A stretch of DNA of 64,000 nt from assembly GCA_963705305.1 (NCBI GenBank), contig OY970067.1:4032001-4096000 (forward strand), written 5' to 3'. A model generated the notes under the pieces. That model ran no database searches. It was not told the origin of the DNA and worked only from the letters and a program-made list of their open reading frames with translations. Every line of letters begins with the position of its first letter. Positions within the stretch are counted from its first letter, which is position 1. This stretch comes from an uncultured Methylomirabilota bacterium. GTDB taxonomy: Bacteria; Methylomirabilota; Methylomirabilia; Methylomirabilales; 2-02-FULL-66-22. Below, piece after piece: positions 8,877 through 47,446 of the stretch. Both the position numbers and the translations under genes were made by a program.

Positions 8877-10260
8877 TCAAGAAACTGTGCTACCGGCCGG
8901 AGTGGCCGGCACGAGCTGAAACCCGAGGGCCCGGGCCTGGGCGCGGAGCCGGGATTCGGTCCGGCGCCGGTGGTCGGATTCCGCAGCCGCCAGGCGGCTC
9001 TCGTCATAGGGCTCGTGGGTGGTCAGTAAGTGATAAATGATCCGCGCGAGCTTGTGGGCGGTGGCGGTGATCGCCTTGGGGGCCCCGAGCTTGGCGCGCA
9101 TCCGGCGGAAGAACACCCCGAGCACCGACGGGCTGCGGGACAGGCTCTGGGCGGCGAGCCGCAAGGCCTGCGCCACCCGGTGCTTGACGTGGCGCGTTTT
9201 CACGGACAGGATCTTCCCGCCGGAGATCCGATTATCGGGACAGAGGCCGAGCCACGAGGTGAAGTGGTCATTGGCAGGGAACGGGGACAGGTCGGCCCCG
9301 AGCTCCGTGAACAGGGTGGAGACCGTGGAGGTCTGCAGGCCGGGCACCTGCGTGAGGTCGGTCCCCAGGATCCGGTAGAGCTCGGTGCGGAGATCGAAGC
9401 CCGGAGGGACGGGGATGCCGCGCGGTGTGCGGCGAGACCCTTTGGAGGGTGGGAGCGGGTGCGTGGCGGGATCGATGGTGGAGGCGAACGTGCCGAGCCG
9501 CCGCTGGATCTCCGTCTCGCACTCCCCGATCAGGTGCTGGGCATGGCGGTAGGAGGCCAGCGCCTGGCGGAGCGTGAAGCGGGGCTCCGACCGGGAGTCC
9601 CCCACGAGCGCTTTCGCGATGGTTTCCGCGGAGGCCTTGACGCGGTGGTCGCGGTGGCCGGCCAGCACCTGGGGATCCCGCTCCCCCGCCAGGAGGGCGT
9701 CCAGGATGGCCAGGCCGGTGACGCCGGTGAGATCCGTGAGGACGTGGTGGAGCTGGAGGTTCATCTGGGTGAGCGCCTTCTGCATGTGCTGGGTGGGGGC
9801 CGCGGCGGCCTGCACCAGCCCGTCGCGGTGCCGGAGCAGGGTGCGCACAGCGCAGACCGCCTCGGGCGGCCGGAAGGAGGCGCGGAGGAGACCCACGGAG
9901 TGCAGGTACTGGAGCCACTGGCAGTCCTGGACGTCGCTCTTCCGCCCGGGGACGTGCTTGACGTGGCGCGCGTTCACCAGGCAGACCTCGAAGCCGCGGG
10001 TCTCCAGGATCTGGGAGAGCGGGATCCAGGACCACGCCCGTGGCCTCCATCGCGACCGCGGTGATCCCGCACTGCCGGAGCCAGTCCGCGAGGGCGTGCA
10101 GGTCCTCCGTGAAGGTCCCGAAGCGCCGGATGGGCTCGGGGTTCCGGTCGAGGGGCACGCAGGCGTAGATCTCGGTGGCCCCGAGGTCGATGCCCGCGGC
10201 GTGCGGCTGCAGGATCGGCATGGTGACGGGGCGGGTGGTGCGGGGCAGGCGTCTGGCCAT
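8877..10260 (-). pseudogene. IS110 transposase, one frameshift at about 10030
   Basis: GIDLG, AMEATGV, KSDVQDC, FTSWLGLCP...SGG, ATAHKLARI; the frame changes where GVYW is expected. Confidence 0.9.
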
Positions 10261-10567
10261 GGGGGCTCCTCCAGGTGGGGGGTGAAGGCCAGAACCGGCA
10301 GGCGGCCCAGGTCGTGCCGAACGGCAGGTACTCTTTCAATCGGGATCACCACCCGACGGCGGACCCCCATCGGGGGCGTAACCAGTGACTTGCGCACGCG
10401 ACCTGGCACCACGCTTACAAACGGGCTGAACTCCTCGGCACCAGTCGTATCGGTCGGTGTATTGCTTGCCTCGGCCAGCCATGGTGCCGGTACGATACAG
10501 GAGACGCACGCGCCAGGAAAGTCAGTTTCTTTTGTCATTGCCCCGGCCCACGCGGGCAGGGTCGCGG
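10261..10567 (-). ncRNA. Putative IS110 bridge RNA region
   Basis: Two parallel motifs: CTTACAA-ACGGG (10414-10425, equals the target) and CTTTCAA-TCGGG (10333-10344, equals the element end). Exact RNA ends unknown. Confidence 0.65.
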
Positions 10568-10612
10568 CTTACAAGCAGGGGGTCGGTGGTTCGAAACCAC
10601 CTTCGCCCACCA
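10568..10612 (+). tRNA. 3' fragment of tRNA-Val(TAC), att-like, not a complete gene
   Basis: CTTACAAGCAGGGGGTCGGTGGTTCGAAACCACCTTCGCCCACCA: anticodon loop, T-arm, CCA; no D-arm or 5' acceptor strand. Confidence 0.85.
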
Positions 10613-10623
10613 CGGAACTCTGC

Positions 10624-10670
10624 GGAAACACACACCTCCAGAGAAGGTCACCCTGGAGGTGTGTGTTTCC
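10624..10670 (+). terminator. Perfect 18-bp hairpin after the tRNA-Val 3' end
   Basis: GGAAACACACACCTCCAG-N11-CTGGAGGTGTGTGTTTCC. Confidence 0.65.
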
Positions 10671-10734
10671 AGATCGCTCCCAGTAAGCACGAGACTCCGA
10701 AATAGACGGCACTGCCCGAGATGAGGGCGAACGT

Positions 10735-11433: not shown

Positions 11434-11462
11434 GGGCGGGACAAGTGCAGAAGGGAGGTACC

Positions 11463-12161: not shown

Positions 12162-12190
12162 ATGCAGAGGTCGTGCGAGCACGTGATATA

Positions 12191-12249
12191 CGGGACTCAA
12201 AATCCCGCGAGGGTAACCTCATGAGGGTTCGATTCCCTCCCCCGGCACC
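12191..12249 (+). tRNA. 3' fragment of tRNA-Leu(CAA), att-like
   Basis: CGGGA-CTCAAAA-TCCCG anticodon arm, long variable arm, GAGGGTTCGATTCCCTC T-arm, CCCCGGCACC; no matching 5' half upstream. Confidence 0.8.
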
Positions 12250-12389
12250 CTAATTGTGCAATGGATGTCTGGGGTCAGAGGAGCCGAAGGGGCAAGCGGA
12301 AAATGCGCTTGACAAGGCCATCTAGGAAGAGTTAAAAGTGTCGACATTCATCAGTCGGAATCACACCTGTTGTTGCCGGGGGGTACCGG

Positions 12390-13244: not shown

Positions 13245-13313
13245 ATCGGGAGCGCGAGGTGGACCACTTTCCATTTCCCGGGCCTTTGGACAACATTCGC
13301 AAGGAGACTGGCC

Positions 13314-14666: not shown

Positions 14667-14696
14667 GAACCCCAGAGCGGAAAGGAGGAGCAGAGA

Positions 14697-15159
14697 ATGC
14701 CAGCCAATCGCGAGCGTGCCCTGGCCATCATGCGGGAGCACAACCTCGATGCCATCGTCACGATGATGCCGGAAAACATGACCTATCTGACAGATTTCCC
14801 GATGCTGCACGGCTGCCTGGCGGAGACGAAGGTCTATGTAGTCTTTCCGGCCGCCCTGGATCAGAAACCGAGTATCGTGATCCCGCGGAATTCAGTGGAC
14901 ATGCTGACGTCCTCCAGCTCCACCGTGGACGACATCTGGCTTCACGGGAATTTTTTCCTGTTCGAGTCCGAGGGAATGGATCCGACGACCCTGACCGAGG
15001 AGGAGCGGCGCCTGCGCGCAGCGCTCCGCAGCCCGCACACCCCGTCCGATCTGGATGCGCTGCGGGCCTGCCTGAAGGCCAAGGGTTTGGAGGCCGCGCG
15101 CATCGGGTTCGACGAGAAGTCGCTCCAGAGTCCGGATGTCTTTGAGCAGATCGCGGGCC
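14697..15159 (+). pseudogene. M24 peptidase/creatinase-like N-terminal domain, truncated by IS3
   Basis: NLDAIV..PEN.TYLT, RIGFDE; the frame runs into the IS3 left IR and no continuation follows the IS. Confidence 0.65.
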
Positions 15160-15231
15160 TGACCTGCCCCCCGGAAATTGGTCCAGGGTTGATGTAGGAT
15201 AGGACCGATTTTCCAAGAGAGGAGGCAGGGC

Positions 15232-15510
15232 ATGCCACAGAAGCGCTTCACCCCAGAAGAGATCATCGGCAAGCTCCGCCACGCCGATGTCCTGCTTGGC
15301 CAGGGGAAGAAGCTGGCCGAGGTCGTCAAGGCCCTCGGCGTCAGCGACGTCACCGACTCCCGCTGGCGCCAGGAGTTCGGCGGCCTGTCCACCGCCCAGG
15401 CGAAGCGCCTGAAGGAGCTGGAGCGGGAGAACGGGCAGCTCCGGAAGGTGGTCGCCGATCTCACCCTTGACAAGCTGATCCTCCAGGAGGCCGCCACGGG
15501 AACCTGCTGA
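15232..15510 (+). CDS. IS3 OrfA (HTH)
   Basis: KRFTPEEII.KLR, RLKELEREN..LRK.VADL.LDK.IL. Confidence 0.88.
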   Translation: MPQKRFTPEEIIGKLRHADVLLGQGKKLAEVVKALGVSDVTDSRWRQEFGGLSTAQAKRLKELERENGQLRKVVADLTLDKLILQEAATGTC

Positions 15511-15515
15511 GCCCC

Positions 15516-16385
15516 TTGCGGCGGCGCCGGTGTGTCGCGGCGGTGTGCGGGGGGCTGGGGGTCTCCGAACGACGGGCCTGCCGCGTCCTGGGTCAGCACC
15601 GGGCGACGCAGCGGCATCAGCCGGTGCTGCGCCCCGACGAGGCCCCACTGACCGCCGCGATCGTGCAGCTGGCGACCCAGTACGGCCGGTACGGCTACCG
15701 GCGGATCACGGCGCTCTTGCGACAGGACGGGTGGACAGTGAATCCCAAGCGGGTGGAACGGCTCGGGCGGCTTGAGGGGTTGAAGGTGCCGCCCCGGCAA
15801 CCCAAGCGGGGCCGCCTGTGGCTCACCGACGGCTCGTGCGTGCGGCTCCGGCCCATGCACCGGAATCACGTCTGGGCGTATGACTTCCTGACGGACCGGA
15901 CCCACGCTGGAAAAGCGTTCCGGCTCCTCACGGTGCTGGACGAGTTCACCCGGGAGTGCCTGGCGATCGTGGTCGCCCGCCGGCTTACGGCGGGTGACGT
16001 CCTGGCCACTTTAACGCGGCTCTTCGTCGAGCGCGGGGTCCCGGAGCACCTCCGGTCGGATAACGGCCCGGCGCTCTGTGCCAAGGTGGTCCGAGGTTGG
16101 TTACATTGGCTGGGCGTACACACTCTGGTTCTCGAGCCGGGGAGCCCCTGGGAGCACGGTTACAACGAGTCCTTCAACGGGAAGCTCCGGGACGAGCTCC
16201 TGAATCGGGAGATCTTCTCCACGCTACAGGAGGCGCAGGTCCTGATCGAGCGATGGCGGCAGCACTACAACCGGATCCGGCCCCACAGCGCGCTGGGCTA
16301 CCGACCCCCAGCTCCCGAGACGCGGGCCTTCCCCACGCTGTCCCCGCCGCCAGTCCCCGGGCTGGCATTAGGAGCTTTGAACTAA
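15516..16385 (+). CDS. IS3 OrfB DDE transposase (degenerate)
   Basis: YGYRRI, VWAYDF, LRSDNG, ESFNGKLRDE, RPHSALGY. Confidence 0.88.
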   Translation: MRRRRCVAAVCGGLGVSERRACRVLGQHRATQRHQPVLRPDEAPLTAAIVQLATQYGRYGYRRITALLRQDGWTVNPKRVERLGRLEGLKVPPRQPKRGRLWLTDGSCVRLRPMHRNHVWAYDFLTDRTHAGKAFRLLTVLDEFTRECLAIVVARRLTAGDVLATLTRLFVERGVPEHLRSDNGPALCAKVVRGWLHWLGVHTLVLEPGSPWEHGYNESFNGKLRDELLNREIFSTLQEAQVLIERWRQHYNRIRPHSALGYRPPAPETRAFPTLSPPPVPGLALGALN

Positions 16386-17025
16386 CATGCGGGTGGACCA
16401 ATCAGTGGGGGCAGGCCAAGGTATGGGGATGACCTCGCGTGAACGTATGCTGGCGGCTTTATCCCATCGGCAGCCCGATCGGGCTCCGCTGGACCTCGGC
16501 GGGACAAGAAACTCCACGATGGTATTGGAAGGCTACGAGCGGATTAAGGCACATTTCCTCATCTCGGCGCCGTCCGTGATAACCGAGCGGATGATGCAGG
16601 TGGTGGAGATCGATGAGGGGGTCCTCACTCTCCTGGGGATCGATACCCGGGCGGTTTTCCCGAGCGGGACGACGCGGGGGCTAGCGGCCGACCTTGGACC
16701 ATGCCGGTATCGCGACATGTGGGGCGTAGAACGAGTCCAGCCCGAAGGAAGCCACTATTGCGATCTGGTGCTCTCACCCCTCTCGGGAGACGTGACGGAC
16801 GACGGCATCCTGAAATACCCCTGGCCGGATCCCGACGACCCCGGATTCACTGCCGGCCCGAAGGATCGCGTGGGCTGGATCCGGGAGCACACACAGGCTG
16901 CGTCGGTCCTGGCGCTCCCATCCGCCTTCGTTCACATCAGCCAGTACCTGCGCAGCTTCGAGGACTGGTTTTGCGATTTCGTCGCGAACCCGAAACGGCT
17001 GAATATCCTCTTTGACGCCATCCTA

Positions 17026-18193
17026 GTCTACCGTGTCACACAGATGCCATCTTATGCAGCACTGCTCGAGCCCGCTCGACTTTCGCCAGGATGTCCTCCA
17101 CCTTGGCCGTCCAGGTGAACGACCGGGGGTGGCGGTTGTGGTGTGCGATGAAGGCCTCAATGGCGGCGATGAGGTCGGCGACGCTCTTGAAGACGCCCCG
17201 GCGGAGCCGCTTGGTCGTGAGCTCCCGGAACCACCGCTCGATGAGATTCAACCACGAGCTGCTGGTCGGAATGAAGTGCATGTGGAAGCGTGGGTGGCGG
17301 GCGAGCCAGCGCTGGACCGCAGGGTGTTTATGGGTGGCGTAGTTGTCCACGATCAGGTGGAGGTCCAGGTCGGGCGGGGTCTGCGCGTCGATCAGCCGGA
17401 GGAACCGGAGCCACTCCTGGTGCCGATGCTTGGGCAGGCACGTGCCGATGAGCTGGCCCGTCACGAGCCCCAGGGCGGCGAAGAGCGTGGTCGTGCCGTT
17501 CCGCTTGTAGTCGTGGGTCAGGGTGCCGCACCGGCCCTTCTTCAGCGGGAGGCCGGGTTGGGTGCGGTCGAGCGCTTGGATCTGGCTCTTCTCGTCGGCG
17601 CACAGCACCAACGCGTGCTCAGGGGGATTCAGGTACAGCCCCACCACATCGGTCAGCTTCTCGAGGAACCGCCGGTCGCGGCTCACCTTGAACGGGCGGA
17701 CCCGATGCGGCTTCAGGCCGTGGGCCTGCCAGACCCGGTGCACGGTCTTCGGGCTCACGCCGACCGCGGCCGCCAGGGTCCGCGTGCTCCAGTGGGTGGC
17801 GGCGGGCGGCGCGCTGGTTGTCGTCAGGGTGACGATGCGCTGCAGGACCGCCGGGGCGATGGCGGGCGTCCGGCCGGGGCGCGGGGCATCCCGCTCGATC
17901 CCGGCCAGCCGCTGCTGGGCGAAGCGAGTCCGCCACCGACCCACACACTCGCGATCCGTGTCCAGGGCCCGGGCGACCTCGTCGTTCCGCTGCCCCGCCG
18001 CCGCGCGCAGGACGATCTGCGCCCGGCGCACGAGGCGCGCGGGGGTGCGCCGCCCCCGTGCCCAGCGTTCCAAGATGGTGCGTTCCTGCGGGCTCAGCAC
18101 AATCGGCACCGCCACACGCATGGCTTGCTCCTCCTCACCGAGGAGCATACCAGAGTACGTACTATAAGTCACCGTATTTATGACACACTAGAC
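17026..18193 (-). mobile_element. IS630 family element
   Basis: TA duplication (17024-25 / 18194-95, within CTAG); imperfect IRs GTCTA..GTGTCA. Confidence 0.92.
17036..18121 (-). CDS. IS630 transposase
   Basis: [43 protein letters not shown]. Confidence 0.93.
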
Positions 18194-18815
18194 TAGATGT
18201 CACGATGGCCATCGCCAGGCGCCAACTCCAGGAGGTCGGCCACGAGGTGGACGTGGTACTCACCTCGGATGATCTGGGCTCCCAGAATGATTTCCTAGTG
18301 AGCCGCGAGCACTATCTCAGGTACATCAAGCCGAGGCAACAGCGCCTCTTCCGGCAAATCAAAGATCTCACGCCGGCCAAGGAGGTCTTCCACTCCTGCG
18401 GCGCGGTGGCTTCGATCATCGATGACCTGATCGAGATGGGTGTGGACGGGCTGAATCCCGTTCAGGCCCAGGCTACTGGGATGCAGCCGGCCGAGTTGAA
18501 GCGGAAGTACCGGGGGCGGATGGCTTTCTGGGGCGGGACGGATGCGCAGGGCATTGTCCCGCGTGGCGGCGTGGCCGAGGTGAAGCGGATGGTCGAGGAG
18601 TTGATCGAGGCCATGGGTGAAGGGGGCGGGTACGTTTTCTCCAACTGTCACAACATCCAGCCGGACGTTCCCCTGGAAAACGTACTGGCCATGTTCGAAC
18701 ACGCCCGGGAGTACGTTCCTTCGTTTGCACACTAGCGTACGTCTAACAAGCCCCTGTTAAACAGGGCAAACAGGGCATCTGAATCCAGAATACCCACAGG
18801 ACACCGGAGGACCCC

Positions 18816-19550: not shown

Positions 19551-19561
19551 GAGAGTGAGCA

Positions 19562-21490: not shown

Positions 21491-21499
21491 CGCTGCTGC

Positions 21500-23608: not shown

Positions 23609-23704
23609 TGGGCTAACAACCAGATCATGAGCAAAAGTCCGTGAGGAAAATGGGTGACACTCCGACACCGAGGTTCCCCGGGGGAACCGAAAGGAGTGTG
23701 ACCC

Positions 23705-25591
23705 ATGGAGAGGATCGGCAAGGCAGGAGGGAGGCGGAAGCAGAGCCGGGGGCCGCGGAAGGCAACGCGGCGGGCGGGTGGGGCGCACCCCCACGTCCAC
23801 CCGTTCGAGGTCCGGCGCAAAGCGGTGCAGCTCTGCCTGGAGGAAGGGTTCCCCCCCAAGCAGGTCGCCCGCGAACTCGGCGTCGGCTTCAGTACGCTCG
23901 GGGCGTGGGTGCGCCGGTATCGCGCCGAGGGGGAAGCGGGCCTGCAGGCGAAGCCGACACGGCCGCACCGGCAGCGCCCGAAAGTGGCCCCGGCGGTGAA
24001 GGCGGAGGTCGTCGCCCTCAAGCGGCGCCACCCCGAGGCGGGGATCCAGAAGATCAGCCAGTTCCTGCGGCGCGTGCTGTGCCTGCCGGTGAGCCGGGAG
24101 ACGGTGCGCCGCACCCTGCACGCGCACCAGCTCCTCAAGAAGCCACGCCCCAAACCCCAGCGGAACCCGGCCCGACCGCGCTTCTTCGAGCGCGCCACGC
24201 CGAACCAGCTCTGGCAGACCGACATCTTCACCTTCCGCCTGGGCGGCAAGAACGCTTACCTGATCGGCTTCCTCGACGACCACTCCCGCTACGTGGTGGG
24301 GCTGGACGTCTTCCGCAGCCAGACGGCGGAGCACGTCCTGGAAGTGTACCGCCGGGCGGTGGCGGAGTACGGGGTCCCCAAGGAGCTGCTCTCCGACCAG
24401 GGCCGGCAGTTCTCCAGCTGGCGCGGGACCACCCGGTTCGAGGCGGAGCTCCGGAAGGATCGGGTGCACCACATCAAGAGCCGCCCGCACCACCCCATGA
24501 CCCTGGGCAAGCTGGAGCGCTTCTGGAAGACGATCTGGGAGGAGTTCCTGGCGCGCGCCCAGTTCGAGAGCTTCGAGGCGGCCGGCGAGCGGATCCGGCT
24601 CTGGGGGACGCACGACAACCACCGGCGGCCCCACCAGGCCCTGGAGGGGCTCTGCCCGGCGGATCGCTTCTTCGGCATCGCCCAGGAGCTCCGGCAGGTG
24701 ATCGAGCGGGGCATCCAGGAGAACGTGCTCGAGCTCGCGCTCCGCGGGCAGCCCCAGAGCCCCTTCTACATGGTGGGCCGGCTGGGCGAGCAGTCGGTGG
24801 TGATCCGGGCGGAGAAGGGCCGCGTGAAGATGCTCGTCGATGGCGAGGAATCGCGACCACAGCAGGAGGTGACCTACGACCTGGAAGGAGGGGCCCGTGA
24901 GCACGGAAATCCCAGCCAAACCGGACCCGCTGCGATACAATGCCCAGCAGCGCGTGCAGGCGGTGCTGTCGCTCTGGACCGAGCGGCGGCGCCCGGGGGA
25001 GGTCTGCCAGGAGCTGGCGATCAGCCCGAAGGTGCTCGCCCAGTGGGAACAGCGGGCGCTAGCAGCGATGCTCCAGGCGCTGGCGGCGCCGACGCGCCGC
25101 GACCCGGGCCCCGCGCTGAGCCCGAAGCTGGAGCGCCTGCTCGCGCGGCAAGCCCTGCAGCAGCAGAGCCGCCTGGCCCGACTGGAGCAGCGGCTCACCA
25201 AGCTCCAGGAATCGAAAGCCCCACCGCCGCCCACCAAGTAGAGAAGGCCCGCGGGGCGGGAGGACGCGATGCGCGAGCCGACGGCCAGTCCCCACCAGCA
25301 AGCCCTGGCCCGGCAACGGGCGCAGCTGATCATGCAGGCGCGGAGCGGGGTGGTGAGTGCCCAGGAAGCCGCCCGGCAGCTGGGGGTCTCCCGCAAGACG
25401 GACTCCAAGTGGGAGCGCCGGGCCCTGGCGGCGATGGTCGCGGCCCTGGGCAACCGGGGCCAGGGGCGGTCGGCGCAGCCGCACGACCTGGAGAAGGCGG
25501 CCCTCCGACGCCAGACCCAGGAGCTGCAGGCCCAGCTCACCGTCCTGCAGCAGACGGAGCGGCTCCGGCAGGTGCTCGCGCAGCCGGATAA
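23705..25591 (+). CDS. IS481-like transposase (HTH + rve) with a low-complexity C-terminal read-through
   Basis: PNQLWQTD, FLDDHSRY, LSDQGRQF, GKLERFWKT, RPHQAL; conserved-looking part ends near 24900. Confidence 0.85.
   Translation: MERIGKAGGRRKQSRGPRKATRRAGGAHPHVHPFEVRRKAVQLCLEEGFPPKQVARELGVGFSTLGAWVRRYRAEGEAGLQAKPTRPHRQRPKVAPAVKAEVVALKRRHPEAGIQKISQFLRRVLCLPVSRETVRRTLHAHQLLKKPRPKPQRNPARPRFFERATPNQLWQTDIFTFRLGGKNAYLIGFLDDHSRYVVGLDVFRSQTAEHVLEVYRRAVAEYGVPKELLSDQGRQFSSWRGTTRFEAELRKDRVHHIKSRPHHPMTLGKLERFWKTIWEEFLARAQFESFEAAGERIRLWGTHDNHRRPHQALEGLCPADRFFGIAQELRQVIERGIQENVLELALRGQPQSPFYMVGRLGEQSVVIRAEKGRVKMLVDGEESRPQQEVTYDLEGGAREHGNPSQTGPAAIQCPAARAGGAVALDRAAAPGGGLPGAGDQPEGARPVGTAGASSDAPGAGGADAPRPGPRAEPEAGAPARAASPAAAEPPGPTGAAAHQAPGIESPTAAHQVEKARGAGGRDARADGQSPPASPGPATGAADHAGAERGGECPGSRPAAGGLPQDGLQVGAPGPGGDGRGPGQPGPGAVGAAARPGEGGPPTPDPGAAGPAHRPAADGAAPAGARAAG
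24897..25241 (+). CDS. Small HTH/coiled-coil accessory protein
   Basis: GGAGG RBS, AVLSLW..RR..EVCQELAI...L.QWEQRA, coiled-coil C-terminus. Confidence 0.65.
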   Translation: MSTEIPAKPDPLRYNAQQRVQAVLSLWTERRRPGEVCQELAISPKVLAQWEQRALAAMLQALAAPTRRDPGPALSPKLERLLARQALQQQSRLARLEQRLTKLQESKAPPPPTK

Positions 25592-25604
25592 AAAAAACCC
25601 CTGA
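25269..25604 (+). CDS. Small HTH/coiled-coil protein (OrfA-like)
   Basis: SAQEAARQLGVSRKT..KWERRA; ends in an A8 run. Confidence 0.7.
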   Translation: MREPTASPHQQALARQRAQLIMQARSGVVSAQEAARQLGVSRKTDSKWERRALAAMVAALGNRGQGRSAQPHDLEKAALRRQTQELQAQLTVLQQTERLRQVLAQPDKKNP

Positions 25605-25614
25605 GGTGGCCGCG

Positions 25615-26679
25615 ATGCTGATCCCGACCTTCACCCAGCTGAAGCACGACGTGCGCTGGCCCTACGAGCGCCTCTGCCGGGTCCTGGGGGTGCCCTATGG
25701 GACCGTCCGGCGGTGGAAGCAGCGCCTGGCGCAGGGCCAGCCAGCCCGGTTCCCGCCGGGGCCCAAGAAGGTGGCGCCGCTGCGCCTGGACGAACTGCGC
25801 GGGACCGTGGCCCGCCTGGACCACGGCCGCCGGCGCAGCCGAGGCGTCGGGGCGGTGTACCGGCAGTTCCACCCGCAGGTCTCCCGCCGCACGCTGCAGG
25901 CGCTGACCGAGACGCTGCGGCGGCAGCGGGCCCAGCAGTGCCAGGCGGCACTCTGCCACATCACCTGGCAGGTGCCCGGGTTAGTCTGGTCGCTGGACGA
26001 CGCGGAGCTGGCGCGAGGGAGTTCGCCTCTCCTGCGCCTCCATCAAGCGCAGGATCTCGCCTCGCGCTATAAGTTCACACCCTGGGTGGGAGAGCGAATC
26101 TTCGGAGAATCCGTGGCTGCTCGGCTGGAACACCTGTTCTTGCAGTATGGACCGCCGCTGGTGCTCAAGCGCGACAACGGCTCCAATCTCAATCAGCACG
26201 CGGTCGAGGAGGTGCTGGCCCGGTACGGGGTCCTGCCGCTGAACTCGCCTCCCCATTACCCGCCCGACACCGGCGGGATGGAGCGCGCGGTGCGGGAACT
26301 CAAGACGCCGCTGGTGGCGAAGCTCCGCGCCAGCGGTCCGATCCCGGAGTCCCAAGTGCAGAGCTGGGCGGCCCTCTTGGCGCATGACCTGAACCATCGC
26401 CGCCGTCGCTCTCTCCAGGGGGACGTGGCCTGCCGGGTGTTTCAGGATGCCAGGCCAGCCCTGCAGGCGTATACTCGTCGCAAGCGACGGGAGGTCTTCG
26501 AGGAGATCAACGAACTGACCCGGACGCTCATGGAGGCCCAGACGGATTGCACCCCCCGTCACGCCGGAACGGCCCGGCGGCTGGCGGTGGAAGCCTGGTT
26601 ACAAAAACACGGGGTCATAAGCATCACTCAGAACCACAGAGTGTTACCCATTTCCCTCGAAGAAATCGCTCATAATTAG
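25615..26679 (+). CDS. Second integrase-core (DDE) transposase
   Basis: VWSLDD, QDLASRYK, LKRDNGSN, MERAVRELK, LNHRRRRSL. Confidence 0.8.
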   Translation: MLIPTFTQLKHDVRWPYERLCRVLGVPYGTVRRWKQRLAQGQPARFPPGPKKVAPLRLDELRGTVARLDHGRRRSRGVGAVYRQFHPQVSRRTLQALTETLRRQRAQQCQAALCHITWQVPGLVWSLDDAELARGSSPLLRLHQAQDLASRYKFTPWVGERIFGESVAARLEHLFLQYGPPLVLKRDNGSNLNQHAVEEVLARYGVLPLNSPPHYPPDTGGMERAVRELKTPLVAKLRASGPIPESQVQSWAALLAHDLNHRRRRSLQGDVACRVFQDARPALQAYTRRKRREVFEEINELTRTLMEAQTDCTPRHAGTARRLAVEAWLQKHGVISITQNHRVLPISLEEIAHN

Positions 26680-26723
26680 GTTGGCCCCACACACCCCTCG
26701 GCGAGCGGGAACGCGACCCGCTC

Positions 26724-35282: not shown

Positions 35283-35312
35283 GACAGGCTCCCAGCTATC
35301 GGACCTCGCTCT

Positions 35313-37663: not shown

Positions 37664-37697
37664 AGCATACCCGGGGAGTGTGGCAGGTAACGTCACA
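37664..37697 (-). promoter_or_regulatory. WYL-box promoter 2
   Basis: Minus: TGTGAC-gttacct-GCCACA-N9-TATGCT, divergent from WYL-1. Confidence 0.7.
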
Positions 37698-37756
37698 GGA
37701 GATGAGGCTCAGTTTCGTCTTGCGGGCGAGCGGGAGACGGGCCTATAGTCTCCGGG

Positions 37757-38752: not shown

Positions 38753-38760
38753 CGAGCCCC

Positions 38761-40356
38761 ATGGCGCAGATCGTCCCCTCCGACATCGCCCCCTACGAAC
38801 GGTCAGGTTGGCATACCCCCGAGCTCGAGACCCTGAATACGCTGCGAGCGCGCCTGCCGGCCGCATACACGGTCTACCACGGCGTGCACTGGGCCCGCGA
38901 GGGCGCGCAGGCAACGGCCTTTGGAGAACTGGACTTCGTCGTCGTGAACGCGGTGGGGCGCGTGCTCGTCGTCGAGCAGAAGAACGGGGCGCTGGAGCAG
39001 ACCGCTTCCGGCCTGGTGAAGACCTACCCCGATGGGTCGAAGAGCGTCGGGGAGCAGGTGCAGCGCTCCCTCGACGGCATCCGTCGGAAGTTCAGGGCAG
39101 TCCATGGACCCGGCGCAACGCTCGACCTTGACTATCTCATCTATTGCCCGGACCATCGGTTACACGCCCTCAACGCGGCGGCCCTCGATGCCAGCCGGAT
39201 CGTCGATGCAGAGCAGCGCGACCGACTGGCCGAGCGGATCGAGGGTATCCTCGGACCGGGCCTCCCCCCGGACCCTGCCCGAGCCGAGCGAGCCCTGGCC
39301 TTCTTTCGGCAGACCTTCGAGGTGGTCCCGGACATCCATGCCCACATGAGCCAGCAGGAGAAGGCATACACCCGGCTCGCCGGCCCCCTGGCCCAGCTCC
39401 TGGCCAATCTGGAGATGACCCCCCTCCGCCTGCGGATCTACGGCACGGCGGGCTGCGGGAAGAGTCTGATCGCCGGCCAGTTCTTCCAGAAGGCCCTCGC
39501 CCAGGGGAAGAGGCCCATTCTCGTCTGCTACAACCGGCCGCTCGCCGAGAAGTTGAAGGCCAGCCTGCCGTCCGACGGCCTCGTCACCAATTTCCACGGG
39601 CTCTGCGACCAGTTCCTGAAGAGCCAGGGGCATCCGCCCGTCTACGACGACTGGACACGCATTGTCGAATCGGTCGCGGCAGAGTCTGTTCCGGGTTCGT
39701 GGAAGTTCGATGCGGTGATCGTGGACGAGGGGCAGGACTTCGAGCAGGAGTGGGTGGAAACCCTTCGCCTCTTCCTCCGGGACCAACCGGATATGGTGTG
39801 GCTCGAGGACCCGGACCAGAACGTTCACGACCGAGCACCTGTGACTCTTGCCGGCTTCGTTGGCTACCGAGCCCGAGTCAACTACCGGACGCCCCGCACG
39901 ATTGCCAAAGCCATCCAGGACATGCTCTCGATCGACTTCGAGATCGGGAATCCCCTTCCGGGCCTCGGGGTGGGAACGACGCCCTACAAAGACCCTGCAG
40001 AGCAGCCTGGCCACGTCGCTCGGATCATCGATGGACTGCTGCAGAAGGGATTCACTCACGATGAGATCGTGGTGCTAACCCTGCGCGGCGTGCAGCACTC
40101 GGTCTTCAGCACGCGGGAGCGGGTCGGCAACTTCACCCTGCGGCGGTTCACAGGGGAATACGATCTGTTCGGCAACCAGATCCTCTCGGCCGGTCAGATC
40201 ACCTTCGACAGCGTCCGCCGCTTCAAGGGCCAGCAGTCCCCTGCCGTGATTCTGGTGGACGTAGAATCCGATTCCAGCCATCCAGAACTATCACAGCGCC
40301 TCCTCTACACAGGCATGACGCGGGGGACGGTGCGGGTGGAGCTGCTAAGAAGGTGA
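38761..40356 (+). CDS. NERD nuclease domain + SF1 helicase/ATPase
   Basis: GELDFVVV...VVEQKNG, GTAGCGKS, VDEGQDF, NYRTP, RFKG, LYTGMTR. Confidence 0.87.
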   Translation: MAQIVPSDIAPYERSGWHTPELETLNTLRARLPAAYTVYHGVHWAREGAQATAFGELDFVVVNAVGRVLVVEQKNGALEQTASGLVKTYPDGSKSVGEQVQRSLDGIRRKFRAVHGPGATLDLDYLIYCPDHRLHALNAAALDASRIVDAEQRDRLAERIEGILGPGLPPDPARAERALAFFRQTFEVVPDIHAHMSQQEKAYTRLAGPLAQLLANLEMTPLRLRIYGTAGCGKSLIAGQFFQKALAQGKRPILVCYNRPLAEKLKASLPSDGLVTNFHGLCDQFLKSQGHPPVYDDWTRIVESVAAESVPGSWKFDAVIVDEGQDFEQEWVETLRLFLRDQPDMVWLEDPDQNVHDRAPVTLAGFVGYRARVNYRTPRTIAKAIQDMLSIDFEIGNPLPGLGVGTTPYKDPAEQPGHVARIIDGLLQKGFTHDEIVVLTLRGVQHSVFSTRERVGNFTLRRFTGEYDLFGNQILSAGQITFDSVRRFKGQQSPAVILVDVESDSSHPELSQRLLYTGMTRGTVRVELLRR

Positions 40357-40507
40357 GAAAGTCTGGGAGACCTCATTCACGGGGAGCTTTCCCTGCCGTG
40401 TATTTCCAAGTAGCGGGGTGATGTCCGCATTGAGGTTCCCCCACGACGCCCGAGGCCCGATCCTGGCAGGCGCTTGCGCTCCCAAAGACAACGACGGACT
40501 TCCCGGG

Positions 40508-41746
40508 CTACCCTTGGCGGGCACCGACCAGCGTTCCAGCATCGTACTCCAGCAATATCCGAGTGGGGCGGTCACCCTCTTGGAGGAGCTGGTGGGTACG
40601 AACGATCGCGCCACTGCCTACCTGAGCCTGTTGCTTGATCGCCTTTGCAAGCGCATTGCACTTTCTGTACAGCGTCTTCCGCCGTGCCCGAAGCGTTGAT
40701 TCCAGATTGAATGTTGCATCGACTGCCCGGACCTCGCCACGAACCGCCGCCATCTCCTGCCGCAGAGCCTCGAGCGCCGAAAGTGATCTCTCAATGCTGG
40801 CGCGACGCGCCGCCTTCATCTGGGGCTCACCGGGATACAGGCACAGGACATGCCAGGCAGCGATCCGGCATTTGAGACACAACTCTAGGTCCTCGACAAT
40901 CTTTCCGAGCTCGTCGACCTTGGCCGAGATTCCGTCCGTTAGCTTTCTGGAGCCGATGAGATCAGTACCCTCCACCCGCTTCTCGAGTTTCTGCCGAAAC
41001 TCGGCTTCGAGGTGATCCTGGATTTTCAAGAGATCGCGCTCGCAATTCTCCAAGTGAATACGGGCAGGCAGGGGCAACTCGCCCGCAGTCAGTGCCGTAC
41101 ACACCTGAGTGAGGTATTCGTATGTCGAGCGGATCCGCGCCTGTCGCTGATTGTTGAGGAACTGGCAGACGGCCTCCACGCGATCCTTGATCTCCCCGAG
41201 TATTTTGCTGATGTCGGCAAGGTGCTTTTGGGCGACGATGACAGAAGCGACTTGCCATACCGCTGCCGCATTGATCATGCTCTGCAGTGTATTCACATCA
41301 AAAAGGCGCGCGTGTTCCGAAATCCTACCCCCCGCCATCGCGAAGGCCCGACGGCCGCTCCCGTCCGCGGCTCGTACGAGGTCCCCGTTGATGACTACCT
41401 CCATCAAGTGTTTACCGTGAGCTTGATGCGCAACGAGGATCGATGGCGCAGATTGGACCAGTGCGCCCAGCTTGCTGACTGGGGCGCTCTGCAGAGCTAT
41501 TGGCTTGGCCTTCTTGAAATCGCGAGGAGATCGGAGGGGCCCAATAGTCATGATGGGCCGGGTCGGCGTATCGCCGATCGCAATGCTCGTGGGTGGCGGA
41601 CCCGTCGGCGGCTCGGCGCGTGGCAGCGATGCTTGTCTTTCAAGAGCCGGAGGCTGCTGCCGTCTCAGCCAGAGCACATAGAGAACCGCTGCGACAAATG
41701 CCAAGAGAAGCGTCAGCGTGATCAAGCCCTGTCCGCTCAGAGTCAT
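40508..41746 (-). CDS. Membrane-anchored hypothetical protein
   Basis: N-terminal hydrophobic helix, helical/coiled-coil body. Confidence 0.7.
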   Translation of the reverse strand: MTLSGQGLITLTLLLAFVAAVLYVLWLRRQQPPALERQASLPRAEPPTGPPPTSIAIGDTPTRPIMTIGPLRSPRDFKKAKPIALQSAPVSKLGALVQSAPSILVAHQAHGKHLMEVVINGDLVRAADGSGRRAFAMAGGRISEHARLFDVNTLQSMINAAAVWQVASVIVAQKHLADISKILGEIKDRVEAVCQFLNNQRQARIRSTYEYLTQVCTALTAGELPLPARIHLENCERDLLKIQDHLEAEFRQKLEKRVEGTDLIGSRKLTDGISAKVDELGKIVEDLELCLKCRIAAWHVLCLYPGEPQMKAARRASIERSLSALEALRQEMAAVRGEVRAVDATFNLESTLRARRKTLYRKCNALAKAIKQQAQVGSGAIVRTHQLLQEGDRPTRILLEYDAGTLVGARQG

Positions 41747-41892
41747 GGGCCCTCCATTCCGCTGGCTAAATTCAGGGAATAATACCACAGCTTGCGGTCG
41801 GTCGGTACCCGCACGACATTGTGAGGAGCATCAACATCCACCATGGCAGGAGGATCGCCAGCACGGTAGCGACAATCAGGACGGCCCAATCC

Positions 41893-42693
41893 TCACCCCT
41901 CAGTTTCGCGTCCATCTTCCTTTCCCTTCCCGGACTTCAGCAGGGCACTCCAGGCCTTTTGTGCCATAGACAATGTGGGCACCCTTCCCCATCGTCGCCA
42001 TCGGGGCGGCAGGCGATCTCGGTATTGGTACGTTTCCACGCGGAGGGCAGGCTGGAGAGCCGGGATGGCGCAGATACCACCGACATGGCAAACGCCCTGT
42101 GCTATCAATCGGATGATCGGCGCAATCTCGCGGATACCCCGGAGGAGGTGCCGAGGGTGCGCCGAGGTGTGGAACAAGATCCACCGATCCAGGAGACCAC
42201 ATTCCGCCACTGCAGCGGCTAGCGCTAGGAAGTAGCCCCGCGGGTTTACCAGGGAGATTACGCGGGGGATATGGAGACTCTTGATGCGCCGGACTCCCCG
42301 TACCAGGGCCTCATTCAGTTCTTCGAGGGCAGTCCACCGGCCGGATCGGGTCGGACGGAACCAGCGCCATGACGGGGCGCCCCAGTCCTCCCCGTCCGGA
42401 TTCCTGGCCCGATCCATCTCGGTCTCCAGGACGATGGCCCCCCGCGGATCGTCCGGGGCGGTCTCCAGGATAGAGCTGTCTACCGCCGCCAAGGCCACGC
42501 GCCCTGCAAGGCGAAGATCCCGGAGCTGCGCATCCGCCTCCCGCCAGGTGTTCCAGCCGGACTTCCGGTACGCCTCCGCCCTGAAGTAGTTCCCCACGCA
42601 GGCGGCGGCGTTGCACGGGAGGATCAGGAGAACCTCCGCGTGCGCCAGCGACCGCAGCTGGACCCATGACTCCTCTCCCTTGATGCGCCTCAT
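41893..42693 (-). CDS. Hypothetical protein translationally coupled to the Clp-fold protease
   Basis: ATGA overlap with the protease stop, GGAGG RBS. Confidence 0.6.
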   Translation of the reverse strand: MRRIKGEESWVQLRSLAHAEVLLILPCNAAACVGNYFRAEAYRKSGWNTWREADAQLRDLRLAGRVALAAVDSSILETAPDDPRGAIVLETEMDRARNPDGEDWGAPSWRWFRPTRSGRWTALEELNEALVRGVRRIKSLHIPRVISLVNPRGYFLALAAAVAECGLLDRWILFHTSAHPRHLLRGIREIAPIIRLIAQGVCHVGGICAIPALQPALRVETYQYRDRLPPRWRRWGRVPTLSMAQKAWSALLKSGKGKEDGRETEG

Positions 42694-43682
42694 GGAGCCT
42701 CCCCCGGGTGGCCCCGTCGCCGTGGGCGGGGTTGGGCTTCGGAGGGAGACGCGTCTGGCCCTGCCGGCATATCGGCCAGGACCCCCTGCGCGGCGTCGAT
42801 CGTCGCCTGCGGGAGGCCGGCCATCGTGATGAGATCCTGCTCGGTGCCGTAGGCGATCAGGGCGAAGGCGAACCGGTCCAGGAGGGCCGCCTCCTCGGCA
42901 TCGGGGAGCCGCGTGGGGAGGCCGAGGGCCTCTGCCTCTTCCCAGTCGATGACGAAGCCGTGGGTGGGATAGCCGTGGACCAGGCGGTCCAGGAGCTTCG
43001 GGCCCGCATCGGCCCAGAGGGCCGGGCGGTACCGCTTGAGGAGGCGCTCGGCGTACTCGCCCCCGGTCTCCATTCCCCGGGCGCTCTCGGCGAGGTGGGC
43101 GGGGTCGAGCCGGGCGTAGAGCGGGCCGTAGAGGCCGGCCGTCAGTTCCGCGGCCTTGCTGCAGGCGTCGCAGAGCCGCATCCCGCTCTTGCTGGAGATC
43201 CGGGCGACGAGGTCGTCGTACAGCCCGACGGCCCCGTGCTGGAGCTGCTGGAGGGCCTTGAAGGGGACCAGGCGCGAGGTGGTGAGGGGGCCGTCCGCCT
43301 CCTGCTTCTCGTCCCCCTGCTGGTCCAGGGGGCCCAGCTCGCCCAGGCTCCCCAGGACGAGCTCGTCGGCGGCCAAACAGAGGAGGGTCGCCGCGCTCTT
43401 GGCCCGGAAGGGGACGAAGATGGTGAGCGCCTCGAACCGGCGCCGGAGCTCCCGGGCCACCAGGTAGGCGGCCTCGATGTCCCCGCCGGGACTGGCCACG
43501 AGCACGTCCAGGTGCGGGCCGGTCTCCTCCTCCAGGGCGGCGCGGATCGCCCGGACATCGGCATGGACCAGCCGCCGGCTGACGAACAGGAGGCAGGGAC
43601 GCTGGCGGTAGGCCCGGAGCTGCGCGCCCAGCTCGCGGATCTCCTGCTCGGCCTCGGCGGGAGTGGCTTTCGCAGTGACCAT
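42690..43682 (-). CDS. SDH family Clp-fold serine protease (copy 1)
   Basis: SPGG, AKSAATL, LGPLD, YPTHGFVI; AAGGAGG RBS before ATG 43682. Confidence 0.85.
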   Translation of the reverse strand: MVTAKATPAEAEQEIRELGAQLRAYRQRPCLLFVSRRLVHADVRAIRAALEEETGPHLDVLVASPGGDIEAAYLVARELRRRFEALTIFVPFRAKSAATLLCLAADELVLGSLGELGPLDQQGDEKQEADGPLTTSRLVPFKALQQLQHGAVGLYDDLVARISSKSGMRLCDACSKAAELTAGLYGPLYARLDPAHLAESARGMETGGEYAERLLKRYRPALWADAGPKLLDRLVHGYPTHGFVIDWEEAEALGLPTRLPDAEEAALLDRFAFALIAYGTEQDLITMAGLPQATIDAAQGVLADMPAGPDASPSEAQPRPRRRGHPGEAP

Positions 43683-43769
43683 GGACAACCTCCTTGGAAG
43701 TTGGAACCCGGCCTTTGGGGGGCCGGCCGTCAGTCGGTAGCCATTGGCCTCAAGAAGTCCACGGCCCTT

Positions 43770-43922
43770 TAGCAGGCGGCTCAAAAAGGTCCGGATGCAA
43801 GGCTGCGTCACCCATCCTTCCGGATGGGTACCCGGCGCGGTGCGAGGCGTACTTCGCTCGTACGTCGCAGTGCCGCGCGAGCGCGCTAACGACGCAGATG
43901 GGCCTTTTTCAGCAGCCTGCTA
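43770..43922. mobile_element. MITE-like palindromic element (copy 1)
   Basis: TA-GCAGGCGGCTCAAAAAGG ... CCTTTTTCAGCAGCCTGC-TA, internal hairpins. Confidence 0.7.
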
Positions 43923-44099
43923 GGCCAGGCCGACCCTGACGGGGATGACCAAGTACTGGTCCCCCCACTCCTCGGCATCGGGCTGCACGAAGGCCTCGGC
44001 CTCGGCTCGCTCGGCGAACAGGACCGGCATCCCCTCGTGCTCCAGCCGGGCCGGCCTGTCGCAGGGCGATGTCCACTTCCACAGTTCGTACATCTGCAT
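43920..44099 (-). CDS. 59-aa hypothetical protein (copy 1)
   Basis: GGAGGAGG RBS; first gene after the WYL-box promoter. Confidence 0.6.
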   Translation of the reverse strand: MQMYELWKWTSPCDRPARLEHEGMPVLFAERAEAEAFVQPDAEEWGDQYLVIPVRVGLA

Positions 44100-44145
44100 G
44101 GGCCCCTCTCCTCCTCCGCATCGCCGGTCGGCTCTGTGCAGCCGG

Positions 44146-44179
44146 ATTCTACGAGGGGCCTGTGGCATCTACGGTCACA
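44146..44179 (-). promoter_or_regulatory. WYL-box promoter 3
   Basis: Minus: TGTGAC-cgtagat-GCCACA-N9-TAGAAT. Confidence 0.72.
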
Positions 44180-44556
44180 GAATCATCCGTCGACCGACTT
44201 GAGCCAAGCGAGGTGAATCCCTGAGTAGTTGAATGAACCAACGCGATCGATCCCCACCGCCCGGACGATATGGCCCATCCGCATTGCCAATCCGAAAGCT
44301 GGGGCCGTCTTCCTTGTCGGCCGACTTTTCACAAGGGCACAATCATTGCCACTCATCAGGGGTTTTTGAGGGATTCTACAGCGTGGTTAGGAGGTGGGAA
44401 GGCGCGAAGAAGTGAGCGCGGCTGAAGCCCGGAGGGCACATTTGGGCCGCGCTCTGATGTGGTGCCCAGTTGGAGGCCCGCGCACCTACCGGTCCAATGC
44501 GGTCGCAACAACGTAAACGACATACCCCCCCGGGGGGGTGCGTAATCTGTGCCCGG

Positions 44557-45816
44557 CTAGCGCGGGACATTTGTGGGCAAGATGATGTCGGGGTGCCGGT
44601 TGGTGGGCTCTTTCCAAATGGCGTCCTTGCACCGATCGGTCGGGAGGGCTTTCCAATCGTCGATGCTGGGCTGGTAGTTCTGACGTGGGTCGGGCCGCAT
44701 GTAGATGGTGCAAAGTCTAGGCGGCTCGGCGACGCTGTACACGGTGTATTGGTAGTAACCCGGTGCTGGGGTGTAGGAATACCCTGGGTGTGTGGGGACG
44801 GCTGTTCGGTCGATCTGCTGTTGGAGGACGTGTTGGCATTGCATCCAGGCTGGGCTACCGACTGCCCCGTTTCGTTCACAGCGGACTTGGATGTTGCCGG
44901 CCGGTGCGCCGGTGTTTCCCGCCTCGATCCCGCTCCCCATCCCGACGACAGCGCCGGGCTCGCCTCGGACACGCGGACATGGAGGAGGTGGGGAGCTGTA
45001 ATTGGGGTTGACATAGACGGGGGCGTAGACGCCCGGGTCACCCAACTGAATGGGGATCAAGCCCGGAACTGGTATACAGGAGTAGGGCGGGAGGGGTTGA
45101 GACGCCGGCGCAGGTTGCAGGACCGAGGTGGCCGGGGTGGGCTGAGACCCCACAGTTTGGACACCCGTGATCAGATGAGAACGGTCCAGAGACTTGATCA
45201 AGCGCGCGTAGGTTGACCGGTGATCTTGGGAATACGCGTTGGCATCGGCATAGCCGCGCAGTTTCCCCACGGAATCCGACGACAAATTGATGGAGCCCAT
45301 TTCGAGGGTGCCCGGAGGGGCCGGGTGGGGGTGCGCTTCTACCCTGATGATCAGGAACATGGAGCCGATGTCGGGCGAGGGCGGGCCTACGGCGGTGTCC
45401 CCAAATTTGCCCTGAGGAAATTTGGGGGCGAGCACTGCGTGAACGGAGACATGCGTGACCTGCGGGTGCCTCATAACAATTGGATATACGGAATTAGCGA
45501 GAGCTTCCGACAGGGCAGTGGGGTCGGCGGCTGGATTAAGAAATGCCGTGAGGTAGAGATCCGCGGGGTGGGTGAAAGAGAGGGAGTCCTCCATTTGCCG
45601 GATCATCTCGTCGAACTGCTGTGTGAGAGCGGGGTGCTCAGGGGAGGGTGCGGCTGCCGAGGCGGCCGGTGGACCCTCGCGGGTTTGCCGTTGGCGTTCG
45701 CATTCCAGGCGAGAGAGCGACCCCGCCTCGAACTCTTGGCACGATGGCAGCTCACCGGCGTACGCGATGCTGGACCACAGCAAGAGCAGTCCGATGAATA
45801 CGGTGAGTCTCCTCAT
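44557..45816 (-). CDS. Secreted Pro/Cys-rich hypothetical protein
   Basis: Signal peptide MRRLTVFIGLLLLWSSIAYA; paired cysteines. Confidence 0.65.
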   Translation of the reverse strand: MRRLTVFIGLLLLWSSIAYAGELPSCQEFEAGSLSRLECERQRQTREGPPAASAAAPSPEHPALTQQFDEMIRQMEDSLSFTHPADLYLTAFLNPAADPTALSEALANSVYPIVMRHPQVTHVSVHAVLAPKFPQGKFGDTAVGPPSPDIGSMFLIIRVEAHPHPAPPGTLEMGSINLSSDSVGKLRGYADANAYSQDHRSTYARLIKSLDRSHLITGVQTVGSQPTPATSVLQPAPASQPLPPYSCIPVPGLIPIQLGDPGVYAPVYVNPNYSSPPPPCPRVRGEPGAVVGMGSGIEAGNTGAPAGNIQVRCERNGAVGSPAWMQCQHVLQQQIDRTAVPTHPGYSYTPAPGYYQYTVYSVAEPPRLCTIYMRPDPRQNYQPSIDDWKALPTDRCKDAIWKEPTNRHPDIILPTNVPR

Positions 45817-45922
45817 GACCGTTCCCTTCATGTGCTACGTGAGTTGGTGGCTGACTCACGGCTGGTCCGGATGTCCGAGGAGATAGCTGGACGCTGTGTG
45901 GTATCTAACTTACGGCTTTGGG

Positions 45923-47446
45923 GCTGTCAAGGGGAGACGGATTATCCTAATCTCCGACTAAGCCGGGGCCAGTCGGGCGATCTTGCGTCGGACCCGGTGG
46001 AGTAAGGCATGCTGCAGGGCGGCCGAGAGCCGCAAGAGGGTCTGCCGGGCATGCGCGACGACCTTCCCGACGGTGTTGAACAGCAGGAACCGGAGTCGCT
46101 TCGGCCGGGCGGTCCGGAGATCTCCGGGTAAGGTCAAGCGCTTCAGGGCGGTGAGCAAGTTGTACGTCAGCACATTGAGGCGGAACCACGCGGCGTTCGC
46201 CCCGAACTTCCCGCTGGGCAGGGCGGCGGCCGCCAGCTCGTTCTTGAGGACGTGATGGGTATGTTCGACGGTCCCCGCTTTCTCCCGGTGCCACTGGAGG
46301 ATCGTGAGGCCCTCCTCGGTCCGATTGGTGACCACGGCGAAGTAGTGGACGCTGCTCCCATCCGCGAAGAGGTGCCCCTGGCGCGGCTGGATCCGCACCG
46401 CGAGGTAGCGGCGCACGCACGGCCGAGCCTTCCGGTGATCCCCATCCTCGGGGACGTAGGGGACCTCGGCCCAGGCGCGGACGGCCTCGGGTTCCTCGCG
46501 CTCGAGCTGCCAGGCGGCCTCGGGGAGGCGGACGATCTCGGCCTGGAGTTGCTCCGAGAGATCGGCGCTGATGGCGTACGCGATCGGGGGGGCCGCGTCC
46601 TCGCACCAGCGGAGGACCTCGGTCTCGTAGAGCGCCCTGTCGGCGCGGAGGCGGATCCGCGGGATCCCCTGGGGCAGATTGGCCACGGCCTGTTCGAGAA
46701 CGCGCACGTTGCCACACCCGGCGGGCACCTGGCCATCGCGGAACTGATCGTGCAGGATCAGGTCCTGCTCGGCCCAGAGGACGACGACCGGCTGGGACGC
46801 CGCGGGTCCCATCGTAGGCGACGGTGGCCGTGTCCTTATGGCTCTCGACGAGCGTGGCGTCCACATCCAGGGTAGCCGTCGTCTCGCGGGCCCCGCGCTG
46901 GACGCCCGCGACCAGCGTCCGGTTCGCCTGGCCCAGCCCCGCGAGGGCGCTGGACTCCAGCGGGATCGCCGCGTGGGGCCCGGCCTGCCACAGGGGGCCG
47001 TTCTCCACGTGGAACGCCTCGAGGAAGTCCCGCACGGTGGTCGCCGCGGGCAGGGGGTACCCGAGCAGGGTCGCCAAGGCCTGATCCTCGCGCAGCGTCG
47101 TGAGGTCCTGGCAGCGGTCCCCGCCGCTCGTCCACAACGCGACGAGGCTCTCGACGAGCTGCAACGGCTGCAGCCCGCGCTGGCGCTGTTTGACTGGGAC
47201 GTGGGTATCGACCGCCTGGGCCACCCCGAGCTGGCGGAACAGCTCGATCACGAGCGGCACTCCGGCCCGCCCGGTGACCAGCGTGGGGTCAATGGCATCA
47301 TCGATCTCGAACGGCAACCGCGAGTTCTCGGCCGGCATCGTCGTCCTCCCTGTGAGCGCTGCACCCACTGGGTGAAGACAAGCAAACCCGATGCCATCAA
47401 CGACAACCGCGTACACGGCGGGTTCTCGTAGAATCCGCTTGACTGC
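45923..47446 (-). mobile_element. IS1380 family element (ends approximate)
   Basis: Short inverted ends GC(T/A)GTCAAG / CGGATT around the transposase. Confidence 0.75.
45958..47338 (-). pseudogene. IS1380 transposase, frameshift at about 46796
   Basis: VTGRAG, TLDVDAT, FRDG.VPA, LRAD.ALY, VVTN, GTVEH...LKNE, FGANAAW. Confidence 0.88.

Follow-up and report, generated by a model that had tools for sequence, protein, structure and literature searches.

A directional A:T>C:G substitution signature in insertion sequences of an uncultured Methylomirabilota bacterium

The insertion sequences (ISs) in a 64,000-nucleotide stretch of DNA from an uncultured Methylomirabilota bacterium (contig OY970067.1 of assembly GCA_963705305.1, positions 4,032,001 to 4,096,000; the whole stretch is called the window here, and is G000:C1:4032001-4096000 of the genome labelled G000) carry a real excess of A:T>C:G substitutions, written A>C below. 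The signature resembles a mutT/MutY-type mutational bias, yet mutT does not appear to be lost, and the signature departs on all three points compared from repeat-induced point mutation (RIP). As its source we favour, at an even chance, an A>C bias of the lineage that is probably episodic, linked to MutY and not aimed at repeats. No description of an A>C signature in bacterial ISs was found in the literature searched, which was covered mostly at abstract level and with few subscription journals.

Results

Insertion sequences carry an A>C excess

Genome G000 is a single contig of 5.65 Mb with 66% GC, and its window contains IS110, IS3, IS630, IS481-like double-DDE and IS1380 elements, as follows.

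8877..10400, minus strand: IS110-family transposase, frameshifted, with a split open reading frame (ORF), recognised by NF033542 and Pfam; no second copy in the genome
15160..16418, plus strand: IS3-family element with OrfA at 15232-15510 and OrfB at 15516-16385; no full second copy
17023..18196, minus strand: IS630, inside a UroD-like gene; nine identical copies
23609..26691, plus strand: IS481-like double-DDE element; three near-identical copies and one 94% relative
25699..26659, plus strand: mosaic tract in the double-DDE element, with 71 of the 72 differences, of mixed kind, that set it apart from the other two copies
45946..47472, minus strand: IS1380, frameshifted and diverged (85% identity to a family of 27 copies)

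A first-pass annotation of the window had proposed from family motifs that unrelated transposases here are altered, and the altered motifs (TDSRW, PWEHG, IFS, WGTHDNH, KTDSKW, YPPDTG, PLSQ, GDSR and, at 46386, RADR) are all present where it placed them and are derived by comparison with homologues. Among the IS3 OrfA rows, 78 of 87 have TYYRW and two have TDSRW, both from G000, while the OrfB position of PWENG is N in 118 of 119 homologues and H in none, and that of IFY is Y in 91 of 119 and S in three. Copies of the double-DDE element in genomes of the same genus (congeners) have WVKH/YYNH, KTYYKW and YPPYNG, and none of 80 metagenome loci of this element has WGTHDNH, KTDSKW or YPPDTG, the loci keeping WVK(H/Y)YNH-like, KTYY and YPPYNG motifs. 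The terminal TGG at 23609, which had been taken for a changed TGT, is normal for its family (of 34 rows extending to the end, 30 have TGG, four have TGC and none has TGT). In most relatives the ends of the element are likewise asymmetric, TGG...ACA, and no target duplication is seen at its three G000 sites.

The spectrum of four window ISs (IS3, IS110, IS1380 and double-DDE), scored at 1583 A/T and 3098 G/C sites conserved in relatives, comprised 49 A:T>C:G, 15 A:T>G:C, 3 A:T>T:A, 1 C:G>A:T, 56 C:G>G:C and 57 C:G>T:A changes. The proposal that unrelated transposases change in one direction is therefore borne out as an A>C excess (A>C vs A>G, p=2e-5) and overstated beyond that, as 57 C>T and 56 C>G changes, not split by codon position, are there too. 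Four non-IS genes of the window had no A>C at 689 A/T sites (p=3e-8 vs the ISs, with conservation thresholds differing slightly between the two counts). Genome-wide, with a hand-picked IS list from which four near-duplicate rows were dropped, and with fragments having at least two homologues only, the share of A>C among radical changes was 94 of 258 for the 61 IS fragments vs 274 of 1794 for the 580 other fragments (p=3e-14), or 18.5 vs 4.1 radical A>C per 1000 opportunities, while the rates of C>A, C>G and A>T were similar in the two sets. The A>C load of G000 was 31.8 per 1000 A/T sites vs 11.6 in the congener G020. Taken together, the A>C signature in the window ISs is real.

Individual elements differ in load. 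The IS3 element has A>C at 15355, 15359, 15762, 15765, 16071, 16131, 16155 and 16218; A>C accounts for 10 of its 14 changes and for 10 of 16 amino-acid deviations. IS110 has 10-12, including 10015 and 9595 (both Y>S). Relative to congeners the double-DDE element shows 22 A>C, 9-11 A>G and no C>A; in IS630, six of ten radical deviations from ~60%-identical homologues are A>C, none of them private to a copy. The RADR of IS1380 is as had been noted, but the signal claimed for this element is weak, with two to five A>C changes (including 46386, S>R, and 46796). Outside the window, a RAYT/TIRtron relic (G000:C1:490150-491154; L023, L363), present as three 99%-identical copies of ~79% GC, has 18 A>C among 23 changes, and 18 of its 98 conserved A/T sites have become C:G; copying probably went on after it had decayed. 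Other loaded copies are seen in the congeners G003, G004, G007, G008 and G019 and among unrelated homologues (P0044 with 12 of 13 changes A>C, P0065 with 13 of 20, and P0113), so that the signature recurs outside G000.

The altered motifs are genuine sequence

Because ISs that are single-copy carry the signature, collapsed repeats cannot account for it, and the suggestion that it might be an assembly artefact of that kind does not hold. Contigs of two public sequencing runs also agree with the window across three motifs: those of run X1 match it with 0 differing letters over 24522-24913 and 24930-25476 (double-DDE), and a contig of run X2, which has a different study code, does so over 15189-15416 (IS3). 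Runs X3 and X4 were left out, having almost no sequence words in common with the window. In favour of an artefact, whether from collapsed repeats or long-read miscalls, it can be said that this comparison rests on contigs and not raw reads, that X1 may be the source sample, that the IS110 motifs are not bridged by matching contigs and that IS1380 lies outside the compared stretch; however, derived bases are common to diverged copies, and we regard such an origin as hardly credible. Transposases with D or S instead of Y are thus genuine sequence here and not misassembly.

The load does not depend on repetition

The concentration of the load in ISs would fit a RIP-like, homology-triggered mutagenesis of multicopy elements, as the first-pass annotation had proposed, but three observations contradict it. 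First, changes are common to copies: the two other full double-DDE copies do not differ from each other along their 3083 bp, and both carry every motif change. Second, the load is unrelated to copy number, with one or two changes in the 27-copy IS1380, six of ten radical changes in the nine-copy IS630, 18 of 98 A/T sites in the three-copy RAYT relic, and 10 and 12 in the single-copy IS3 and IS110, while a duplicated non-IS gene, the SDH-type gene listed below, is clean (no signature, one of four deviations). Third, the isolated private changes among near-identical G000 IS copies number 12 C>T, 2 A>G, 1 A>T and no A>C, that is, 0 of 15. Seven of the 12 private C>T lie in CGT[C] (2% expected), six of these in CGT[C]G, and may be miscalls linked to cytosine methylation, or deamination; leaving out the CGT[C] sites, 0 of 8 private changes are A>C.

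RIP of fungi produces C:G>T:A, depends on duplication and strikes each copy independently. The pattern here is like it in that transposons bear a directional load and the dinucleotide preference is mild, and unlike it in that the change is A:T>C:G and not C:G>T:A, that no duplication is needed and that copies were not mutated independently; RIP has a strong dinucleotide context, whereas TpA is enriched only ~2-3-fold here. We had little expectation left for a RIP-like process, which appeared very improbable, and reject it together with the artefact.

The non-IS genes of the window that served as controls are these.

1131..2118, minus strand: Ldh_2 pseudogene with a deletion and a frameshift, in a 60%-GC island; spectrum mixed, C>T-led
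14697..15159, plus strand: 5' remnant of an M24/creatinase gene; 0 A>C at 123 conserved A/T sites, with two comparators only
16428..18735, plus strand: UroD-like gene interrupted by IS630; 0 A>C at 230 conserved A/T sites
58758..59735, plus strand: SDH-type Clp-fold gene, duplicated, with its second copy within 42776-44184

The UroD-like gene is a poor control, because it is split by an IS630 with nine identical copies and so was probably broken only recently.

A proposed lineage-level bias linked to MutY

The likeness to the spectrum of 8-oxo-deoxyguanosine triphosphate misincorporation, which had been noticed at first pass, is supported, and the repair genes of the genus give it a setting. 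MutS1 was not found in any of the 21 genus genomes or of 20 genomes of family f7, and the order as a whole has it in 8 of 66 (a tally that counts G048 as one no-match row); neither MutL nor NucS was found in G000, which has MutM, one DinB and one DnaE. A mutY gene is present in 16 of 21 genus genomes and was not found in G020 (98% complete), G012, G009, G010 and G011. The predicted MutY of G000 (L394:1474-2570, G000:C1 ~136350-137450) is short, without the C-terminal domain (no Nudix-like domain in the ORF), and a second, partial mutY lies at G000:C1:508617-509033. Directly upstream of mutY, and overlapping it, is an open 130-aa ORF with a full Nudix box, scoring above the NUDIX_4 cut-off and below that of TIGR00586, so that its orthology to mutT is uncertain; the loss of mutT that the spectrum might have implied is not what this gene content indicates.

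The accessible text of PMC13511376 reports that mutT strains of Escherichia coli gain A:T>C:G only and that, once mutY is lost, A:T>C:G falls in mutT and wild-type E. coli alike. In ISs of congeners, the ratio of A>C to C>A was 123:60 in mutY-positive genomes (without G000 and G012) vs 49:59 in mutY-less ones (p=3e-4; kin are not independent and ISs move between hosts). Host genes behave similarly. Among intact orthologues of G000 and the mutY-less G020, non-synonymous A>C changes toward G000 numbered 1946 vs 1557 in the opposite direction (193 vs 117 genes, p=2e-5), whereas against the mutY-positive G005 they numbered 1365 vs 1374 (118 vs 118 genes); the sequence compared amounted to ~1.2 Mb for G020 and 0.8 Mb for G005. 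Counts of radical changes only were 884:674 (G020) and 572:682 (G005), and an A>G/C>T asymmetry was absent. In three-way core genes, A>C:C>A was 159:164 in G000, 217:227 in G005 and 140:211 in G020. The balance of A>C to C>A follows the presence of predicted mutY genes, a relation that is correlational.

Outside ISs, a decayed histidine kinase gene (G000:C1:3999335-4000729) has 11 A>C vs 3-4 A>G, and seven of its 15 radical changes are A>C (p=0.004 vs host genes); it has eight paralogues that are 52-61% identical, seven of them in G000. It sits in a cluster of duplicated two-component genes, and its H-box, N-box and G-box are eroded. Two further points favour a lineage-level bias: the A>C changes have no strand bias (53 A, 42 T), and GC content at four-fold sites (GC4) is 89%.

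We propose that 8-oxo-deoxyguanosine (8-oxo-dG) or deoxyguanosine (dG) would be put in opposite template A and left uncorrected in this MutS-less genus, and that MutY would then excise the correct A, by which A:T>C:G would be fixed and C:G>A:T suppressed. Host genes would lose most of these changes through selection, and ISs, being relaxed and having mutated copies that are still copied or homogenised, would retain them and outlive ordinary pseudogenes. Bacterial pseudogenes are generally short-lived. Many loaded ORFs remain open, because A>C seldom creates stop codons. Since none of the newest changes is A>C, the bias probably came in episodes.

Two described systems are close. The GO system and mutT mutator of E. 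coli, in the accessible part of PMC13511376, share with G000 a strict A:T>C:G direction, a virtual lack of C:G>A:T in the presence of mutY, and MutM and MutY genes; unlike that mutator, G000 has a mutT-like gene that appears intact, a short MutY and newest changes that lack the signature, and the spectrum was measured there whereas here it is read from natural IS relics. Mycobacterium smegmatis, as far as the available text of PMC4938668 goes, is likewise GC-rich, lacks MutS/L and has many A:T>C:G changes, but these (111) are outnumbered by A:T>G:C (209), and 45% of them lie within GACC/CACC; here the ratio of A>C to A>G is ~3:1, GACC/CACC is not enriched, TpA is favoured and NucS is absent.

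Several observations weigh against a lineage-level, MutY-linked bias. The kinase was chosen after ranking, and the core genes show no A>C excess specific to G000. The Ldh_2 pseudogene is well decayed (21 deviations at columns fixed in four homologues, vs 3-9 in the homologues themselves), yet only two of its 26 deviations are A>C (p=0.002 vs IS), which upholds the contrast between ISs and this pseudogene drawn at first pass. The intact genes of its 60%-GC island drift C>T, and it may have decayed in a donor lineage; relatives of Ldh_2 in viral contigs were not found. Among 23 non-IS remnant/paralogue pairs, most of them young or distant, the counts were 152 vs 152; an ISL3-like relic has one A>C in 12; and with 0 of 15 private changes being A>C, the bias shows no visible activity at present. 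The absence of mutY from incomplete genomes is weak evidence, with only one mutY-less genome compared at scale, and one IS110 copy in that genome, G020, has 11 A>C. The predicted mutT-like gene of G000 appears intact. Lastly, loss of mismatch repair normally increases transitions and not transversions, according to the accessible text of PMC7015689, and therefore another source of 8-oxo-dG or dG mis-insertions is needed.

Fine pattern and possible processes confined to mobile DNA

A process specific to ISs or mobile DNA, in which A>C changes arise in bursts at a stage of the life cycle or by the action of a host enzyme that strips mobile DNA of adenines, is possible and clearly less probable than the lineage-level bias. 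Such a stage might be an intermediate in single-stranded or circular form, passage into a new cell, or the filling of gaps by DinB from a dNTP pool that is oxidised. Near-purity of the loads (18 of 23 in the RAYT relic, 10 of 14 in IS3, 12 of 13 in P0044, 13 of 20 in P0065), the lack of the signature in Ldh_2 and the genes of its island, and the absence of A>C among recent private changes all speak for it. So does the fine pattern. Changes are enriched 2-3-fold at TpA (12 of 125 vs 55 of 1552) and are clustered in G000, with 12 pairs within 6 nt vs 5.7 expected (p=0.004).

However, 13 loaded loci from metagenomes did not repeat the clustering (5 vs 6.5 expected, at low power), freshly copied ISs gain no A>C, the non-IS kinase carries the signature and the asymmetry of host genes tracks mutY. 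Nor does G000 contain an Argonaute (0 matches) or a second DnaE. A quasi-palindrome, hairpin or direct-repeat template for the changes was also rejected (116 events in G000 compared with 1902 other sites, p=0.25-0.8); one of eight templating tests reached p=0.026, in other genomes. The narrower version, in which A would turn into C burst-wise through adenine excision, or through gap filling with oxidised nucleotides, on transposition or transfer intermediates, we consider unlikely. If it were true, ISs would be inactivated without being repeated, a functional analogue of RIP with a different chemistry.

Other context signals were sought. TnnnA>GnnnC pairs, counted post hoc, number 5 vs 0.7 expected, all in G000, and 0 vs 0.25 expected in the 13 metagenome loci, where power is low. 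Four TACWA>GACWC double changes occur across three unrelated IS families (the window IS3, the double-DDE element and the RAYT relic), and an independent set of low power did not reproduce them. Neither GACC/CACC (8 events at 262 sites vs 95 at 2430) nor GATC is enriched.

Possible arrival with the elements from other biased hosts

Alternatively, the changes might have arisen in other hosts with such a bias and come in with the elements by horizontal transfer. The loaded copies in five congeners and in unrelated records are consistent with this, and all full double-DDE copies in G000 carry the changes, no unmutated copy having been found. Yet at least five unrelated IS families are loaded in one genome, whose A>C load exceeds that of G020, and the kinase has close paralogues within G000. 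Two G000 IS3 copies, moreover, have four derived bases in common, all A>C, with further derived changes in each. We regard horizontal arrival as improbable.

Implications

Bacterial mutation is usually described, in the accessible portions of PMC8717266 and PMC4938668, as near-universally biased toward A/T. The spectrum recorded by the IS relics analysed here is strongly directed toward GC and led by transversions, and it comes from an uncultured genus without canonical mismatch repair in which mutY is variably present. Should the lineage-level, MutY-linked bias be the cause, dead ISs would serve as recorders of mutation spectra in bacteria that cannot be cultured, and the genus would be a natural test of whether MutY drives genomes to high GC. 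If a process specific to ISs is the cause, it would be an undescribed route of transposon disabling.

Samples, scoring and discarded measures

G000 denotes the genome that holds the window, and the labels G003 to G020 used here denote congeners; rpoB identity of G000 to 20 congeners is ~83-88%. Automatic classification of transposases mixed in response regulators, and the hand list was used instead. An automatic set of truncated remnants (262 vs 233, 177 rows) consisted mostly of intact genes overlooked by the gene caller, and its total was discarded. Raw pairwise DNA asymmetry was confounded by GC differences, its highest scores being intact rml genes. Four-fold sites in the three-way core alignments were saturated (93-136 conserved A/T sites, with A>C and A>G nearly balanced in each of the three genomes), and pseudogenes defined by frameshifts gave no clear asymmetry, many being young or breaks in the query.

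Further features of the window

IS3 has no target duplication and joins the 5' part of an M24 peptidase gene, which is longer in a congener, to the start of the UroD-like gene, suggesting a deletion adjacent to the element (14697-16428). The mosaic tract at 25699-26659 of the double-DDE element is, from its pattern of differences, a putative product of recombination or conversion with another subfamily. Positions 37740-44184 and 58256-61629 form inverted arms in which a 1409-bp SDH-type Clp-fold segment is inverted at 99.9% identity and two WYL/HTH regulators are inverted at 86%; between the arms lie IS1380, RNase H-like, AbiE-type and NACHT genes. A tRNA-Leu(CAA) gene is located at ~12163-12250, and the window lies at the cumulative GC-skew maximum, the probable replication terminus.

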